This document shows, in pieces, positions 1 through 47,417 of a DNA stretch of 64,000 bases; position 1 is the stretch's first letter; each line of letters opens with the position of its first letter. Where the stretch lies: assembly GCA_041737385.1 (NCBI GenBank), contig JBGSRU010000005.1, positions 64,128 through 128,127 of the forward strand, written 5' to 3'. This DNA comes from Candidatus Saccharimonadales bacterium (lineage in GTDB: Bacteria > Patescibacteriota > Saccharimonadia > Saccharimonadales > SZUA-47). The notes below the pieces were generated by a model, which did not search any database, was not told where the DNA came from, and saw nothing but the letters and a program-made list of their open reading frames with translations. Made by a program: the position numbers and the translations under genes.

Positions 1-1541
1 AAGTAACTGACTACGAAGGCGTCAAAGCCTTCAACATTGCTCGTGTATCAGACCCACGACAAACAGACGCCCTACCAGCACAAAAACTACGCCTAGACGC
101 TTATAGCGACAGGCTAAAACTAAACAGCGAATACTATGCCTTTGACGAAACTGCCTACAAGGAAGACCGCCAAAAGTTTCGTGAGATTGTTGATAACATC
201 AAAAAGTACCCGAACTTCTGTATCGTGGTATTTGATAAGATTGACCGCTTCACAAGGGACGCTTCTAGCGACATTGTTCAGACTATGAAAGGCTTGGTCA
301 AAGAAGGTAAGATTGAACTACACTTTCCGTCTGACAATCTGATTTACCAAAAAAACTCGCCTGCCAGCGACAAAACACGGCTCGGTATGGGTATGGTTTT
401 TGGCGAATACTACTCATCGGCTATTAGCGACAATGTGAAACGCCGTCAAGACCAGAAGGTAAGCATTGGCGAGTTTCCTGGCAAAGCACCAGTCGGCTAC
501 AAGAATATCAACATCACAGACGCCAACGGCAACATCATCAGCAAAAATATTGTTCCTGACCCTGTTCGTAGCAAGTATATTGTCAAAGCGTATGAAATGC
601 GTCTTGACGGAAAATCATTTAGAACAATCGCTAAACAACTCAAAGAAGACGGCTTACGAGCCAACACAAAAGGACAAGGCATTGTTTCCCAAAGCCAGAT
701 ACAGACTATGCTTATGAACCCGTTCTATTACGGCGTAATGCGGTATAACGACAAAGAATACCCACATAAGTATCAACCAATTATTGAAAAACGATTGTTT
801 GATAAGGTTCAGTTTCTAAATGAGGAACGTAATAACAATAGCCACAAGACGCTGACACGCCAAGTATTCACGTTTAGTGGCGTTGTTCGATGTGCCACCT
901 GTGGTTGCTCGTACTCCTCATACGAAAAGAAAGGGCGTGTTTATATGCGTTGCTCAAAAGCAAGACGAGATACGATTGAATGTAACCAACCGCCAGTGCC
1001 AGAAGCCGAACTTTTACCGCAGGTTGATGACCTGCTGAAACGATTGTCTATCAGTGAAAATATAGTCAATCAGGTATTGGACGTCTTGAAGGGCGAACAC
1101 GACAATATACAGTTGTTCTACCGTAACGCAATCAAAGAAACCAAAGACAAGGTTGATGTTATAGACAAGCGACTGGAAACGCTATATGAAGACCGCTTAG
1201 ACGGACGTATTACTACGCCTGACTATGACAAATACGTAACTAAATACAAAGCAGAAAAGGAAGAATTAGAGTATAGGCTCGTTGAATACACTAACAATGA
1301 CAAAAGTTTCATTTTGACCGCTACACATCTGTTAGAACTAGCCCAAAACGCCCGCAGTATCTTCCAAAGTTCGCAACCTGCCCAAAAGAACAAAATCTTG
1401 AAGGCTCTACTTGCGAACTGCCAAATCAACGAAAAAAGGCTTCAACTCAATCTGTTGAAACCTTTCTCGGTACTTGTTGAAAGCACTCTTTCACAAAATT
1501 GGCTCCGGAGACTGGATTCGAACCAGCGACCTCGAAGTTAA
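1..1541 (+). CDS. large serine recombinase (phage-integrase type), 5'-partial at window edge
   Basis: The frame is open from nt 3. Nt 39-62 encode ARVSDPRQ (catalytic-Ser motif), upstream of the listed ORF 225..1541. Recombinase domain, Cys zinc ribbon (CATCGC..MRCS..ECN) and long C-terminal coiled coil. The last 42 nt are antisense to tRNA-Asn. Confidence 0.85.
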   Translation, partial: VTDYEGVKAFNIARVSDPRQTDALPAQKLRLDAYSDRLKLNSEYYAFDETAYKEDRQKFREIVDNIKKYPNFCIVVFDKIDRFTRDASSDIVQTMKGLVKEGKIELHFPSDNLIYQKNSPASDKTRLGMGMVFGEYYSSAISDNVKRRQDQKVSIGEFPGKAPVGYKNINITDANGNIISKNIVPDPVRSKYIVKAYEMRLDGKSFRTIAKQLKEDGLRANTKGQGIVSQSQIQTMLMNPFYYGVMRYNDKEYPHKYQPIIEKRLFDKVQFLNEERNNNSHKTLTRQVFTFSGVVRCATCGCSYSSYEKKGRVYMRCSKARRDTIECNQPPVPEAELLPQVDDLLKRLSISENIVNQVLDVLKGEHDNIQLFYRNAIKETKDKVDVIDKRLETLYEDRLDGRITTPDYDKYVTKYKAEKEELEYRLVEYTNNDKSFILTATHLLELAQNARSIFQSSQPAQKNKILKALLANCQINEKRLQLNLLKPFSVLVESTLSQNWLRRLDSNQRPRS

Positions 1542-1574
1542 CAGCTTCTTGCTCTACCACTGAGCTACTCCGGA
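1500..1574 (-). tRNA. tRNA-Asn (anticodon GUU)
   Basis: 75-nt cloverleaf on the minus strand: acceptor TCCGGAG/CTCCGGA, D-arm GCTC-AGTGGTA-GAGC, anticodon loop CTGTTAA, T-arm GCTGG-TTCGAAT-CCAGT, encoded CCA. Confidence 0.9.
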
Positions 1575-10106: not shown

Positions 10107-10850
10107 TTACTGTGAAGTGTCTGTTGAGCCCTGAGTAGGATCTTCAGTGGGTGCTATTTCTTCTGGTGCAAGTGCTTCAGGTGTCACATCAGCAGATTCT
10201 GGAGTTTTCCCCAGAGCTTTGTCTATAAGTGCAGAGAACTCCTCTACTGTATCAACAGTAGACGTATCGTCAATCTTTACTCCGTTTAGAATGAATGTTG
10301 GTGTTCCAGACACCTGATACTCACTTTTGCCTGCAGCAGTATCTGCGTTAATAATACCTAATGTGTTGCTGTCCTCAACATCAGCTCTAAACTGGTCAAT
10401 ATCAAGCTCTAGTTGGGCTGCATACTGCTCGAAAATCTGGATAGCTTGCTGGATGGTTACTCCGACTTGATCTGTTTGTGACGGGCCGTTCCAGTCTTCT
10501 AGGTTCTGATATAACAAGTCGTGCATCTCAAAAAACTTACCTTGTTTGCTAGCTGCTTCTGCTGCTCTGTGTGCAGCTAATGCATTGCGGTGGATTTGTA
10601 CTAGCGGAAAGTGCTTGAACTGAAAAGAAATTTCATCTTTATATTTTTCTTTGATCTGATCTACAATCGGGAAGAACGCGCCGCAAGCAGGGCACTCAAA
10701 ATCTGCGAACTCTACAATTTTGACAGAAGAGTCAGTGTTACCAAATATATGTGACGATTGCTCTCCCGTGATTGAATTATCTTTTCCGAACAATACCGCT
10801 CCGGCGATAATCCCTACGACCAGCACTACGGCTATAATAGCTTGCTTCAT
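10107..10850 (-). CDS. DsbA-family thiol:disulfide oxidoreductase, membrane-anchored
   Basis: N-terminal TM, thioredoxin fold with the CPAC active site (FADFECPACGAF). Confidence 0.8.
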   Translation of the reverse strand: MKQAIIAVVLVVGIIAGAVLFGKDNSITGEQSSHIFGNTDSSVKIVEFADFECPACGAFFPIVDQIKEKYKDEISFQFKHFPLVQIHRNALAAHRAAEAASKQGKFFEMHDLLYQNLEDWNGPSQTDQVGVTIQQAIQIFEQYAAQLELDIDQFRADVEDSNTLGIINADTAAGKSEYQVSGTPTFILNGVKIDDTSTVDTVEEFSALIDKALGKTPESADVTPEALAPEEIAPTEDPTQGSTDTSQ

Positions 10851-10931
10851 GTGACTCCTTTTATCTTGATTCTCTATACATTCTAATGCATAAAGCTTGT
10901 ACTTGACTACTGAATAAGCGAAAATAAGAAT

Positions 10932-35051: not shown

Positions 35052-35190
35052 TCACGAGGTTAGAGAGACTTATGTGTAAGGTTCAAAGTCTTAAAAGAAC
35101 TAGTCGAATCAACGACTAGTTCATTTAAGTTGGAATCTAACAGAGTAATTCAGTATAATGCTAGGTAACTCAAGAATGTTTTTGACGAAA

Positions 35191-35226
35191 GGTTTAGCTC
35201 AGTGGTTAGAGCAGTCGGCTCATAAC
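35191..35226 (+). pseudogene. orphan 5' half of the tRNA-Met gene (D-arm to anticodon loop)
   Basis: 35/36 nt identical to 35254-35289 of the intact tRNA. Identity stops after CTCATAAC. No matching acceptor or 3' half. Confidence 0.65.
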
Positions 35227-35250
35227 TTAAAAATTTAGGACTTTAATGGC

Positions 35251-35326
35251 GGGGGTATAGCTCAGTGGTTAGAGCAGTCGGCTCATAACCGATTGGTCCC
35301 TGGTTCAAATCCAGGTACCCCCACCA
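35251..35326 (+). tRNA. tRNA-Met, elongator type (anticodon CAU; tRNA-Ile2 not excluded)
   Basis: 76-nt cloverleaf: GGGGGTA/TACCCCC acceptor, GCTC-AGTGGTTA-GAGC, loop CTCATAA, CCTGG-TTCAAAT-CCAGG, encoded CCA. C11:G24 is an elongator feature. Confidence 0.9.
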
Positions 35327-35450
35327 TTAAAGTCTTTAATACAAGTTGAATGGTCACTGGTGAGAACCGCCTGTAGCAGTATAGTCAAGGAAACTTTCTC
35401 TCAAAAAATTGTTTTTCAAAGAAGAAACTTCGGGCCAACGGTGACGTGGG

Positions 35451-35471
35451 CAAATCCAGGCACCCCCACCA
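35451..35471 (+). repeat. orphan 3' fragment of a tRNA-Met-like gene (T-loop to CCA)
   Basis: CAAATCCAGGCACCCCCACCA versus tRNA 35306-35326 CAAATCCAGGTACCCCCACCA (20/21 identical). Confidence 0.65.
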
Positions 35472-45601: not shown

Positions 45602-45747
45602 GATCTGAATGGCTAGTTTTTTAATATTTTCCGTAGTTATTAGTTAACTCCTTTTATGATTTTAATTATACAGAGAAGGGGGTTGGAATGCTAGTTTCTA
45701 TTGTTAGTACTCCTAGGTCTTCGTCTACGACGAATATCCTTGAGGAG

Positions 45748-46155
45748 CTATCTAGGTGGAAATTGGTACTGAATCAAACTCACTAACTCCTGGGTCGAGT
45801 CTTCTAGGTATTTTTGGTCGTTTACGTCAAAAGTTTTATCACTATCGCTTATTATTTCTAAGTTTCCAACGACGTTTCCGTTTGCTTTCACAGGGACTAC
45901 AATTATTGAGTTGATAGGGTATCCATGAAAATTTTGATTGCAGTTATTACTGATTTCCGCTATTCCAGTACTTGCTACTCTTCCATTGGTGTTTTTGTCA
46001 GGCGTGTTTTCAAGTGGATTTACTAAATCTATCCAAACTTGAGGCATGTTATAACTTGCTCCGCAACGGAGCACTCCATCTTTTTCAAATACAACCATGA
46101 TTGCCCCAGAAGAAGCGCCCAAATCTTTGACTACTCTTTCTATGTATTCATCCAT
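45748..46155 (-). CDS. stand-alone GAF domain protein
   Basis: 135 aa. GAF-like pattern (GAIMVVFEKDG...VPVKANGNVVGNLEI). Confidence 0.6.
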   Translation of the reverse strand: MDEYIERVVKDLGASSGAIMVVFEKDGVLRCGASYNMPQVWIDLVNPLENTPDKNTNGRVASTGIAEISNNCNQNFHGYPINSIIVVPVKANGNVVGNLEIISDSDKTFDVNDQKYLEDSTQELVSLIQYQFPPR

Positions 46156-46340
46156 ATAGGTATTGTCTCATAATATAACAGAGTCTAAAAAACCTCTGTT
46201 AAATAAGCTTAAGCATAATGGTAGCCCATGTATCTTCGTCTAGGAATAACATCCTCGGACGGGCTGAGTCGATGGAAACTTGTCTATAGGGGTGGTGCTA
46301 GTTTAGGTAGCCCTGGCATGTAGGTGTGGACTATTAGATA

Positions 46341-46598
46341 TTAGCCATATAGTTGTGAATGAGTGCCAATCTTAACAAAAATTGTTGCGTCTTCCTTTTG
46401 TAAATACAATGCTCGATAGTCACCAGTAATATTGATACTTCTATAGCTTGAATATTTTCCTTTTAAAGGGTGGTTACGAAGACTTGGATGGAGAGGGTTA
46501 TCGCGAAATAACTTAATGCTTTCGTACAATTTAATTTGTAGTTTAGTCGGAAGCTTCTTGGCTTGCTTAATAAATTCCTTTGAAAAGGTAACATTCAT
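46341..46598 (-). CDS. type II toxin, RelE/YafQ family mRNA interferase
   Basis: 85 aa. FxKxxKKL...L..NP..P.L..H.L.G......S..I..D.R..Y....D.I.....GTHS.LY pattern. ATGA overlap with the antitoxin. Confidence 0.8.
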   Translation of the reverse strand: MNVTFSKEFIKQAKKLPTKLQIKLYESIKLFRDNPLHPSLRNHPLKGKYSSYRSINITGDYRALYLQKEDATIFVKIGTHSQLYG

Positions 46599-46882
46599 TT
46601 TATGTTTAGTTTTTCAGCTAAAAAGTCGAGCGCTTCGTCGTTATCCTTAAATTTGTAGTAATCTCCAGCTTCTATCTGCTTTCGAGAAGCAGCTAATTCT
46701 TTTGCAGTTTTTGCATTTGGGACCTCGGGCAAGTCAAATGTAACACTCTGCTCAGTAGCAAAGCGGCGAAGTTCATTATTCAGAACTGCGCTCACGCTAA
46801 TACCAAGCTTATCAGCTGTTTTAGCTGCAAGCTTTTTTAGTTCAGGATCAGTCTTTAGGTTTATTACTGCATATTTACTCAT
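46595..46882 (-). CDS. type II antitoxin, DinJ/RelB-like (RHH)
   Basis: 95 aa. N-terminal INLKTDPELKKLAAKTADKLGISVSAVLN ribbon-helix-helix pattern. Lies upstream of and overlaps the toxin. Confidence 0.7.
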   Translation of the reverse strand: MSKYAVINLKTDPELKKLAAKTADKLGISVSAVLNNELRRFATEQSVTFDLPEVPNAKTAKELAASRKQIEAGDYYKFKDNDEALDFLAEKLNIK

Positions 46883-47160
46883 ACCAAAAGTATATACTAT
46901 TGGTATTAATTATGTCAATAGATTATTCGCCATTGATGGGCCAAAAAGAGTGACCATCTCAATCCAGCCGCCCACTATCGAAGGGGGCTGTGACTGATAT
47001 GCAAACCTGCGAAGGGTAGAGGGGTCACTCCAACGCACGATGTCAGACTAGCTCTGAGCTATTCCAACATCTAACTAAAATCTGTACAAATAAGAAATTT
47101 GACAGAGTTCGAACCTCCCGCGTTGCGGGTTAGGTTTGGAGTCGTGGAACTGGTACCAAA

Positions 47161-47183
47161 ACGAAAACCCACCAAATGGTGGG
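47161..47183 (-). terminator. intrinsic terminator following the tRNA-fMet 3' fragment copy
   Basis: Minus strand: CCCACCA-TT-TGGTGGG followed by TTTTCGTTTT. Confidence 0.55.
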
Positions 47184-47191
47184 CACTTGTT

Positions 47192-47209
47192 TTGGTAGCG
47201 GGGCCAGGA
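47192..47209 (-). repeat. orphan copy of the 3' end of tRNA-fMet (T-stem 3' strand to CCA plus 1 nt)
   Basis: TTGGTAGCGGGGCCAGGA is identical (18/18) to 47342-47359. Confidence 0.75.
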
Positions 47210-47308
47210 GAGGGAGAAATTCCGCCCGTCTTGCTGTAAAACAGCTGGGGGAATAGCGAACCTGCCCTTTCAGGGCTATCAGGTTCGAGGCTTGACTACG
47301 TCATCAAG

Positions 47309-47334
47309 ATAAAAAACCGACACGAATGTCGGTT
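47309..47334 (-). terminator. intrinsic terminator of tRNA-fMet
   Basis: Minus strand: AACCGACA-TTCG-TGTCGGTT followed by T6. Confidence 0.7.
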
Positions 47335-47342
47335 GTTCATCT

Positions 47343-47417
47343 TGGTAGCGGGGCCAGGACTCGAACCTGGGACCTCATGGTTATGAGCCATGCGAGCTGC
47401 CACTGCTCCACCCCGCG
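47343..47417 (-). tRNA. initiator tRNA-fMet (anticodon CAU)
   Basis: 75-nt cloverleaf. C1 is unpaired with U72. A11:U24 in the D-stem GAGC/GCTC. Anticodon loop CTCATAA with G-C pairs closing the stem. T-arm CCAGG-TTCGAGT-CCTGG. Encoded CCA. Confidence 0.9.

Follow-up and report, generated by a model that had tools for sequence, protein, structure and literature searches.

A decaying array of structured, tRNA-end-mimicking units at an integration hot spot in a Saccharibacteria genome

Integration hot spots at tRNA 3' ends, where elements accrete one behind the other, are a known class of locus. In the tandem ssrA islands of Dehalococcoides, a 20-bp repeat starts in the T-loop, and the large serine recombinase DsiB lies next to the left attachment site, attL (PMC3146451). 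The region described here is a hot spot of this class. It lies in a 64,000-nt stretch of a Candidatus Saccharimonadales genome (contig JBGSRU010000005.1 of assembly GCA_041737385.1, positions 64,128 to 128,127, hereafter the window and numbered from its first letter), in the 460-base gap that follows an initiator tRNA gene (tRNA-fMet). This gap is a tandem array of three strongly folding repeat units (U1 to U3) organized around copies of the tRNA 3' end, and the region is a decaying array of an undescribed family of structured units that mimic tRNA ends. The assignment to the hot-spot class follows from the duplication of the tRNA end, the empty sites of two other loci (L040 and L011; loci are given L numbers throughout), the decay of the distal units, the turnover among relatives and the junctions of larger islands. 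What is not standard is that the units carry no genes, keep a constant compact architecture, contain an inverted half of the tRNA, and harbor covarying, strand-specific structures.

The likeness to the Dehalococcoides islands extends to several features: a direct repeat that copies a tRNA-like gene from a start in or beside the T-loop to its 3' end (20 nt in the units termed type A, 18 nt in the window), tandem arrays downstream of it, a conserved element-side motif abutting the repeat, members devoid of integrase, and a large serine recombinase on the reverse strand beside attL. Such a recombinase (~500-540 aa) is present in L006, in L052 and at the tRNA-Asn gene of the window, and is absent at the window tRNA-fMet. 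Unlike the ssrA islands, the units are 140-260 nt long and gene-less, show the same compact architecture in many species, and hold an inverted copy of the tRNA 3' half together with covarying hairpin domains, while the serine-recombinase islands found here end in another element (R, see below) and insert beside the units without being their parents.

Other described systems resemble the units in their structure. In integron attC sites and in the folded attP site of the CTX phage, imperfect inverted repeats fold on one strand and mimic the duplex of the partner site around a variable structured centre, and the sequence diverges while the structure is kept, as may hold for the units; integron cassette arrays likewise stand beside a fixed anchor and may contain short cassettes, or cassettes without an open reading frame (ORF). 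Unlike the situation in integrons, no IntI/Xer-type recombinase is found nearby (Pfam scans of the neighbouring genes were negative for an IntI-type tyrosine recombinase), the anchor is the end of a tRNA gene instead of attI or dif, the arms (16-30 nt) are tRNA-derived, and recombination of a single strand would be an extrapolation from sequence. Miniature inverted-repeat transposable elements (MITEs) and repetitive extragenic palindromic (REP) or bacterial interspersed mosaic element (BIME) repeats are also small and non-coding, with inverted-repeat ends, strong hairpins and several sequence families, but the units, instead of being dispersed, were found at tRNA 3' ends alone, have ends that copy the tRNA at which they reside, and show no target-site duplication of the transposase type. 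Finally, the tRNA-like domain of transfer-messenger RNA (tmRNA), YrlA and viral tRNA-like structures resemble the units in having a stem like that of a T-arm, a 3' strand like that of an acceptor with ACCA at its end, and a terminator immediately behind; the units differ from them by the lack of a 5' acceptor strand that would free the CCA (the inverted copy pairs with the CCA too), by an insert in the T-loop, and by the absence of any match to a family model.

Anatomy of the array

The anchor of the array is the gene at 47343-47417, on the minus strand as are all array features given below, which encodes a tRNA-Met(CAT) together with its CCA (ARAGORN; Rfam tRNA, 61.5 bits) and in which positions 1 and 72 are unpaired, the initiator-type mismatch. 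The encoded CCA and the unpaired 1:72 identify it as an initiator tRNA, and the attB-like site of the array is the 3' end of this gene. An exact 18-nt copy of this end, two terminators, a set of hairpins and palindromes, and the lack of an ORF had been reported for the gap in an original prediction made by reading the letters alone, and these observations hold. The direct repeat (47192-47209 = 47342-47359) matches at 18 of 18 nt and is unique in the 64 kb, where no third copy is found at up to 3 mismatches (0 expected from 100 shuffles); its proximal copy belongs to a tRNA that both ARAGORN and Rfam recognize as intact, the arrangement of an att-type duplication. Intrinsic terminators, each a GC-rich hairpin with a T-run, are called on both strands at 47315-47334 and 47168-47183, and no ORF exceeds 46 aa in the 460 bases. 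The hairpins and palindromes are located at, or within one base of, the positions first reported: the bulged hairpin CGAACCTG..CAGGTTCG at 47257-47287, CCCGCgttGCGGG at 47117-47129, a motif resembling GGTTCGAA at 47104-47118, TAGCTCtGAGCTA at 47049-47061, and GTGAC/GTCAC at 46990/47024. The outer stem TACCAAAAC/GTTTTGGTA around the second terminator is likewise present, its position being corrected by one base to 47154-47162 / 47189-47197.

From the tRNA outwards, a unit consists of a terminator, a segment termed a', a short hairpin, a segment a5', a type-specific insert and a segment a3', for a total of about 140-260 nt (140-195 in most cases). The terminator has an A-tract and a U-tract that pair with each other. 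Segment a' is an inverted, degenerate copy of the tRNA 3' half (ideal sequence TGGTAGCGGGGCCAGGACTCGAACCTGGGAC), and the hairpin that follows it is variable in sequence with its pairing preserved. The a5' segment is a direct copy of the variable-loop/T-stem segment GTCCCAGGT(TCG), whereas a3' is a direct copy of the T-stem 3' strand, the acceptor 3' strand and the CCA. Insert types A to E are distinguished, unrelated types occupying one and the same slot, at or just after the T-loop position. In minimum-free-energy (MFE) folds, both a5' and a3' are paired to a', with the insert protruding at the position of the T-loop: as modelled, a single strand would restore a duplex that resembles the end of the tRNA gene and from which the insert bulges. 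Both direct segments, a5' and a3', remain identical to the tRNA, whereas a' drifts.

Unit U1 (47193-47341) is intact and of type C, with homologues in L104/L105, L066, L044, L042 and L006. It opens with terminator T1 (47307-47342, core hairpin 47315-47334, from the fold and the terminator call), in which pairing of the A-tract with the U-tract extends the hairpin, so that it can terminate both ways; in most Saccharibacteria loci sampled, this module follows the tRNA. The a' segment of U1 (47275-47306, TGATGACGTAGTCAAGCCTCGAACCTG...) was recognized by local alignment, with 13 of 15 positions shared with the antisense of the tRNA 3' end (CAAGCCTCGAACCTG / CAGGACTCGAACCTG), and homologous segments are present in other loci. 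Hairpin P2 (47257-47290, CTCGAACCTG / CAGGTTCG(AG) with cap GCCCTgaaAGGGC, from fold and alignment) pairs a' with a direct, T-arm-like GGTTCG segment, and the differences between its apical hairpin and those of relatives are compensatory changes. The type-C insert, P3 (47217-47256), reads ATTCC-CCC-[GCTGttttaCAGC]-GGG-C-GGAAT in alignments A1 and A3, and the a3' segment is the exact direct copy at 47192-47209 (TCCTGGCCCCGCTACCA+A) revealed by the repeat search, which is probably the displaced original end of the tRNA and marks the end of U1.

The partial unit U2 (about 47081-47191) starts with terminator T2 (47154-47197, core 47168-47183, from fold, terminator call and motif location), in whose 9-bp outer stem (ACCAAAAC/GTTTTGGT) the copy of the tRNA end pairs with the start of the next a'. 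Its body (47107-47158) contains a' (TGGTACCAGTTCCACGACTCCAAACCT, in which 20 of 27 positions match the antisense tRNA 3' end), the hairpin CCCGCaacGCGGG and then AGGTTCGAAC, and similarity to the unit plan is lost past AGGTTCGAAC. The rest of U2 (47049-47106), which is not assigned to a module, comprises a hairpin TCTGTC..GTACAGA at 47081-47106 and the palindrome TAGCTCaGAGCTA at 47049-47061, and no homologue of it was found in other loci by BLAST comparison. Unit U3 (about 46933-47010) is decayed and of type B (78% identity to L044 by BLAST), and includes GCAGGTTTGC, a type-B hairpin at 46956-47000 and a degenerate copy of the tRNA end, TTTGGCCCATCAA, at 46933-45; in alignment A4 it has maintained the family hairpin via compensatory changes and still shows an invariant G.U pair. 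Decay grows with distance from the tRNA. The leftmost ~40 nt of the gap (46881-46918) lie outside the array.

The array folds much more stably than shuffled sequence. For 46920-47345, the minus strand has an MFE of -162 kcal/mol (z -6.8) and the plus strand one of -176 kcal/mol (z -8.9), and 0 of 100 shuffles reach the native energy. Terminator-like sites number 7, as against 0.9 expected, and no promoter is found inside the array.

Conserved folds, distribution and turnover

The alignment and covariation check suggested with the original prediction returned homologous units, whose helices covary. Type A is the best documented insert, with an alignment of 12 sequences from two different tRNA contexts for which RNAalifold gives a T-stem enclosing three hairpins. 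Its 37 pairs are formed in 93% of cells and 26 of them show double compensatory changes; none of 500 shuffles is as good, and slid controls are 28-46% paired. The derived covariance model retrieves members that were not used to train it (E values of 1.9e-19 for L104 and 1.6e-15 for L046). Conserved single-stranded motifs are GGUGAGAA, a GU in the loop of H1 and CGC...GUG, and 15 of the 17 type-A inserts are oriented like the adjacent tRNA. Type B (7 sequences, including U3 of the window) has 16 pairs with 94% of cells paired and 6 double-change pairs, and 0 of 500 shuffles reach either the observed pairing or the covariation score. For type C (A1 and A3, with L066, L044, L042, L006 and L104; 5-6 sequences), RNAalifold finds double changes in 16 of 37 pairs, and compensatory changes are seen in the terminator, P2 and P3. 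In both type A and type B, one invariant pair is G.U on the tRNA-sense strand and a C.A mismatch on the opposite strand, and therefore the folded species should be the tRNA-sense strand, either as RNA or as single-stranded DNA. Taken together, these substitution patterns indicate that the single-strand structures of the units are under selection.

Two type-A inserts (L046:1545-1650 and L015:3579-3685) run opposite to the tRNA and form inverted duplications, joined via antisense tRNA-end sequence (TGGTAGCGG / GGCCAGGAC), an arrangement that points to palindrome-driven rearrangements in arrays. Hammerhead, twister and similar motifs were sought in the type-A insert, by eye and with Rfam, and none was found. 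Coding capacity was considered through a frame related to the C-terminal tail of serine recombinases, and is ruled out by stops in several members (L032, L059, L060 and the window) and by hairpin compensations that alter the amino acids.

The units also track the tRNA behind which they reside. The other tRNA-Met of the window (35251-35326) is followed at 35327-35470 by the same architecture, in which TGGTCACTGGT, a type-A insert (model match 35352-35462, 73.5 bits) and AAATCCAGGCACCCCCACCA represent the 3' half of that very tRNA, interrupted in the T-loop. The same arrangement is found at the tRNA-Met of L006 and L104; direct copies match tRNA-Met in all three cases, and the inverted copies match it too in L006 and L104. 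Similarly, behind a tRNA-fMet variant with T-stem CCTAG, a type-C unit ends in CCTAGCCCCGC, with a CCTAG a3'. The tRNA-Met(CAT) of the window is itself nested between fragments of an older copy (35188-35470, plus strand): a 36-nt copy of its 5' half, 97% identical, lies at 35191-35226, and the intact gene is flanked by the complementary 13-mers AGGACTTTAATGG and CCATTAAAGTCTT, which gives the appearance of a disrupted gene with a mini-insert in its anticodon loop, the insert bearing a whole tRNA.

How widespread is the family? A search with the last 32 nt of the tRNA among 185,579 species genomes gave 55 loci, mostly from Saccharibacteria and Dehalococcoidia/Chloroflexota. Of 22 loci (mostly Saccharibacteria, three bearing other taxon labels), 9 have a second copy of CCTGGCCCCGCTACCA (up to 2 mismatches) at a distance of 138-257 nt behind the tRNA, and 5 more have a degenerate one. 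Around 30 Dehalococcoidia/Chloroflexota loci have the identical tRNA end, and their downstream copies are limited to tandem tRNA-fMet genes (L027, L035) and one weak match, so that the tRNA sequence does not in itself entail the duplication. Nine loci were added by a metagenome scan for a pair of copies at a distance of 136-196 nt, among them tandem units (L059), a unit-flanked island (L061) and analogous units behind a different tRNA-fMet variant of other bacteria (L058, L062-L064); tandem units are also found in L032, L044 and L006. Altogether, the family is detected in about 15 Saccharibacteria loci and at the second tRNA of the window, and no unit copy was found elsewhere than behind tRNA genes by the 18-mer search of the window or by the covariance-model and locus searches. 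Homologues stand behind tRNA-fMet, and also behind tRNA-Met, in the majority of the Saccharibacteria loci sampled and in some other bacteria. Retrieval of loci anchored on FtsB gave few new units because synteny is not conserved.

In L058, L063 and L064, the tRNA-fMet is not of the Saccharibacteria kind (T-loop TTCAAAT) and is followed by analogous units of 165-190 nt, composed of a terminator, an inverted ..GCCAGGATTTGAA.., a long hairpin and the conserved GGCCGACCYGAG.GAAGCG.AGG.CGCCAAAT before the tRNA end, in tandem in L064. The architecture is therefore not restricted to Saccharibacteria.

Closely related loci differ in their unit content. The upstream flanks of L010, L044, L007 and L066 are 92-98% identical, and their unit sets are, respectively, type B followed by an island and further units, types C and B, type B, and type C; L066 and L007 have the terminator and a' module in common, and differ in hairpin and insert. 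These differing sets are indirect evidence of a putative mobilisation in trans. Moderate evidence of empty sites comes from two loci, neither of which is a close relative: in L040, the tRNA is joined directly to sequence corresponding to that after the second copy in the window (alignment with 47143-47209, 76% over 67 nt), and units are absent from L011, whose upstream side is the closest to that of the window (89% over 203 nt).

Explanations weighed

The reading that we favour, at a probability of about one half, is that the units are cargo-less, site-specific integrative mini-units accreted at the 3' end of tRNA-fMet, whose single-strand fold is selected in a mobile or recombining form. U1 would be the latest arrival, now supplying the tRNA 3' end and terminator T1, and its insertion would have displaced the former tRNA end (47192-47209) and T2 outward, U2 and U3 being older and decaying. 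A recombinase acting in trans would move or exchange the units, possibly one of the large serine recombinases of the lineage, which target tRNA 3' ends, or alternatively an enzyme acting on folded single strands, as for integron attC sites. Repeated junctions between tRNA end and terminator would then offer extra landing sites to larger islands. The three units of the window, with their attL- and attR-like ends and no recombination genes, correspond in this respect to cis-mobilizable remnants (CIME-like elements). We infer the mobility of the units, the type of enzyme and the DNA or RNA nature of the folded species from these comparisons.

Several observations weigh against this reading. A free or attP form of a unit was not found in viral contigs or in phage and plasmid records (motif scans and blastn). 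There is no recombinase gene in or next to the array of the window (Pfam, tblastn), U1 (150 nt, no ORF) encodes no integrase, and all of the unit-only loci sampled are without a recombinase within 8 kb; a tblastn search of the window and loci with one query integrase, of low sensitivity, found no tyrosine recombinase. A double-stranded circle of 150-190 bp is an implausible intermediate, and the textbook att sites of serine or tyrosine recombinases account neither for a' nor for the exact position of the insert. Invariant G.U pairs are more typical of functional RNAs than of DNA sites. Lastly, L044 has a degenerate proximal a3' and an exact distal one, which misfits a simple order in which the newest unit is the nearest.

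Two more specific ideas were tried and rejected. The spacing seen in the units was at odds with the half-site symmetry of serine-recombinase attP/attB sites, with P approximately the inverse of P'. As for a phage or plasmid attP, viral-contig scans with the tRNA-end junction and the type-A and type-B motifs gave an unrelated phage tRNA (L056), an ordinary tyrosine-integrase att site (L057) and chance coding matches. The L056 sequence (10797-10868, in a 54-kb viral contig) is an atypical tRNA-fMet-like sequence whose last 22 nt equal those of the window tRNA, unrelated to the units.

The main rival, to which we give appreciably less weight, is that read-through from the strong tRNA-fMet promoter yields functional, structured unit RNAs: each would imitate the tRNA 3' half, with an acceptor/T minihelix closed by a' and a type-specific domain in the T-loop, and might regulate tRNA-fMet or neighbouring cassettes, or serve as a decoy or processing signal. 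Each unit ends in ACCA followed by a terminator, much as a tRNA gene does, and the strong covariation, the tRNA-sense G.U pairs of two insert types, the conserved single-stranded motifs (GGUGAGAA, the GU of the H1 loop and CGC...GUG), the shared direction of 15 of the 17 type-A inserts and the identity of a3' and a5' to the tRNA while a' drifts would all suit an RNA. Yet the array lacks an internal promoter and a strong bidirectional terminator precedes every unit; units vary among close relatives and decay in place (U2 and U3 of the window, L007, L036, L046), unlike a housekeeping RNA; and several unrelated insert types, none with an Rfam match, use one slot. An unannotated structured RNA was one of two alternatives in the original prediction, and the covarying helices support it in part.

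An origin in place without a dedicated recombinase seems unlikely. Fold-back or template-switch replication, or self-primed copying of a terminated tRNA transcript, would have produced a direct-inverted-direct triplication of the tRNA 3' half at the terminator hairpin, with later insertions and decay. Such an origin would account for ACCA-terminator-TGGT being an extended palindrome and a'-hairpin-a5' a second one, for the derivation of a', a5' and a3' from the resident tRNA in every case, and for the inverted type-A duplications of L046 and L015 joined through tRNA-like sequence, but it leaves unexplained the conserved, covarying insert families shared across species and between two tRNAs, the contrast between an exact a3' and a drifting a', and the reassortment of modules among close relatives.

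It is no more probable that the units are the recombination sites or guide-like RNAs of an undescribed cassette system, integron-like or bridge-RNA-like, anchored at tRNA genes in Saccharibacteria and some other phyla. Antisense and sense copies of the tRNA 3' half would rebuild the target duplex with the type-specific domain at the crossover, and a recombinase in trans would insert and shuffle small cassettes behind tRNA-fMet and tRNA-Met.

The other alternative of the original prediction, a plain decayed att scar with functionless tRNA debris, in which the hairpins would be two terminators and chance palindromes, is improbable. The scar part stands, insofar as the att-type duplication is real, the flank resembles that of L040 and the distal units are degenerate, and the absence of a known RNA family and of a promoter would be expected of debris. 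The debris part is largely refuted by the covariation, as homologous units occur in many species with compensatory substitutions that maintain their helices, decayed U3 still keeps the type-B fold, and another tRNA and other phyla show the architecture as well: the family is conserved, modular and covarying.

A divergent form of a known RNA (tmRNA, including the permuted one, signal recognition particle (SRP) RNA, RNase P RNA, 6S RNA, the Y-RNA-like YrlA, or a small ribozyme) can be dismissed, the T-arm-like GGTTCGAA motifs and ACCA ends being a superficial resemblance and cmscan finding only tRNAs in the window and in 18 related loci. With Rfam 15 at the gathering threshold, the window contains three tRNAs and nothing else; a permissive scan of 46.7-47.6 kb gave mostly microRNA models with E above 0.005 and nothing credible, and both settings applied to the 18 related loci and to L002 returned only tRNAs. 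The best other sub-threshold hits were microRNA models, YrlA and permuted tmRNA scored 13 and 10 bits, and ARAGORN found no tmRNA in the window. The original prediction had found no tmRNA, SRP RNA or RNase P RNA signature by eye and had suggested the Rfam and ARAGORN runs, which agree with it.

For annotation, the family accounts for a class of "structured non-coding" gaps behind tRNA genes in genomes of the candidate phyla radiation (CPR), and one insert type, absent from Rfam, now has a covariance model. In Saccharibacteria, compact structured units that mimic tRNA are left, or used, by integration at tRNA 3' ends, and these multiply the landing sites for larger islands, here with a toxin-antitoxin pair, defence-like genes and small metabolic genes; in genomes as tiny as these, such hot spots may account for a large part of the gene flux at strain level. 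Should the fold turn out to serve as a substrate for recombination or as a guide, it would represent a new mode of tRNA-gene targeting and a possible tool for site-specific insertion.

Islands, recombinases and neighbouring genes

Larger islands are found between or beside units. A 6-kb island with a complete type-D unit on either side (L061:1393-7706) encodes a GDSL lipase, an IrrE/helix-turn-helix (HTH) gene and a HigB-like gene, no integrase or recombinase being recognisable in a Pfam scan; its right junction reads ...cacggCTACCA|terminator. The two flanking units are ~155 nt each with 5 scattered differences, and two tRNA-like 3' fragments lie inside the island. In L006, a 5.5-kb island is located between the tRNA and ...gggCTACCA|unit, and its 530-aa large serine recombinase reads into the tRNA, whereas in L010 units separate small gene groups. 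Large serine recombinases abut tRNA 3' ends in L006 (at tRNA-fMet), in L052 (next to tRNA-fMet, in a layout similar to that of L006) and at the tRNA-Asn of the window, and in L006 and at tRNA-Asn the last recombinase codons are read from the antisense of the tRNA. The recombinase at tRNA-Asn (3/225-1541, plus strand) is full-length, with the Pfam domains Recombinase and Zn_ribbon_recom in its C-terminal part, and ends in the tRNA gene (1500-1574, minus strand), its last ~14 codons being antisense to the tRNA 3' end.

Element R, at 46219-46329 on the minus strand and outside the unit array, is a repeat of ~110 nt ending in ...ACATGGGCTACCA. It shares 81% identity with the right end of the recombinase island of L006, which abuts a unit, and further R-like ends are found in L023, L066, L010 and L061. 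The reverse strand of R resembles, as judged by eye, the C-terminal tail of the recombinases, with a conserved WN.ILEELSRW, and R is probably the 3' end of a serine-recombinase gene, split off on integration. The junctions of L061, L006, L052 and tRNA-Asn, together with the R ends, indicate that junctions between tRNA end and terminator, real or copied, are the landing sites of serine-recombinase islands. R also occurs at 45720-45762 of the window (minus strand) and in two copies each in L006 and L066, always at the far end of small gene groups, and its reverse strand translates into the conserved tail V-A-H-V-A-S-S-W-N-G-I-I-E-E-L-S-R-W.

A toxin-antitoxin pair is encoded between the unit array and R, at 46341-46882 on the minus strand (Pfam RelB, YafQ). 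It consists of a RelB-like antitoxin of 95 aa and a YafQ/ParE-like toxin of 85 aa, and the R copy lies just beyond the two genes. Their near-consensus promoter (TTGACA-18-TATACT, an 11/12 match) overlaps a palindromic operator at 46881-46918, also on the minus strand. The window R is best read as the right-end remnant of an island of the serine-recombinase type, and the toxin-antitoxin pair appears to be the cargo of this decayed island. A flanking 182-aa protein is a singleton (one cluster, one member) among 5.8 billion protein clusters.

A start with A(A/G)CATAAGCA and then a terminator hairpin is common to many of the segments behind ...CTACCA in L010:1-3700, L066 and L020. It is found behind a unit, behind R and, in L020, immediately behind the tRNA, and could be either a native flank or the left end of an island.

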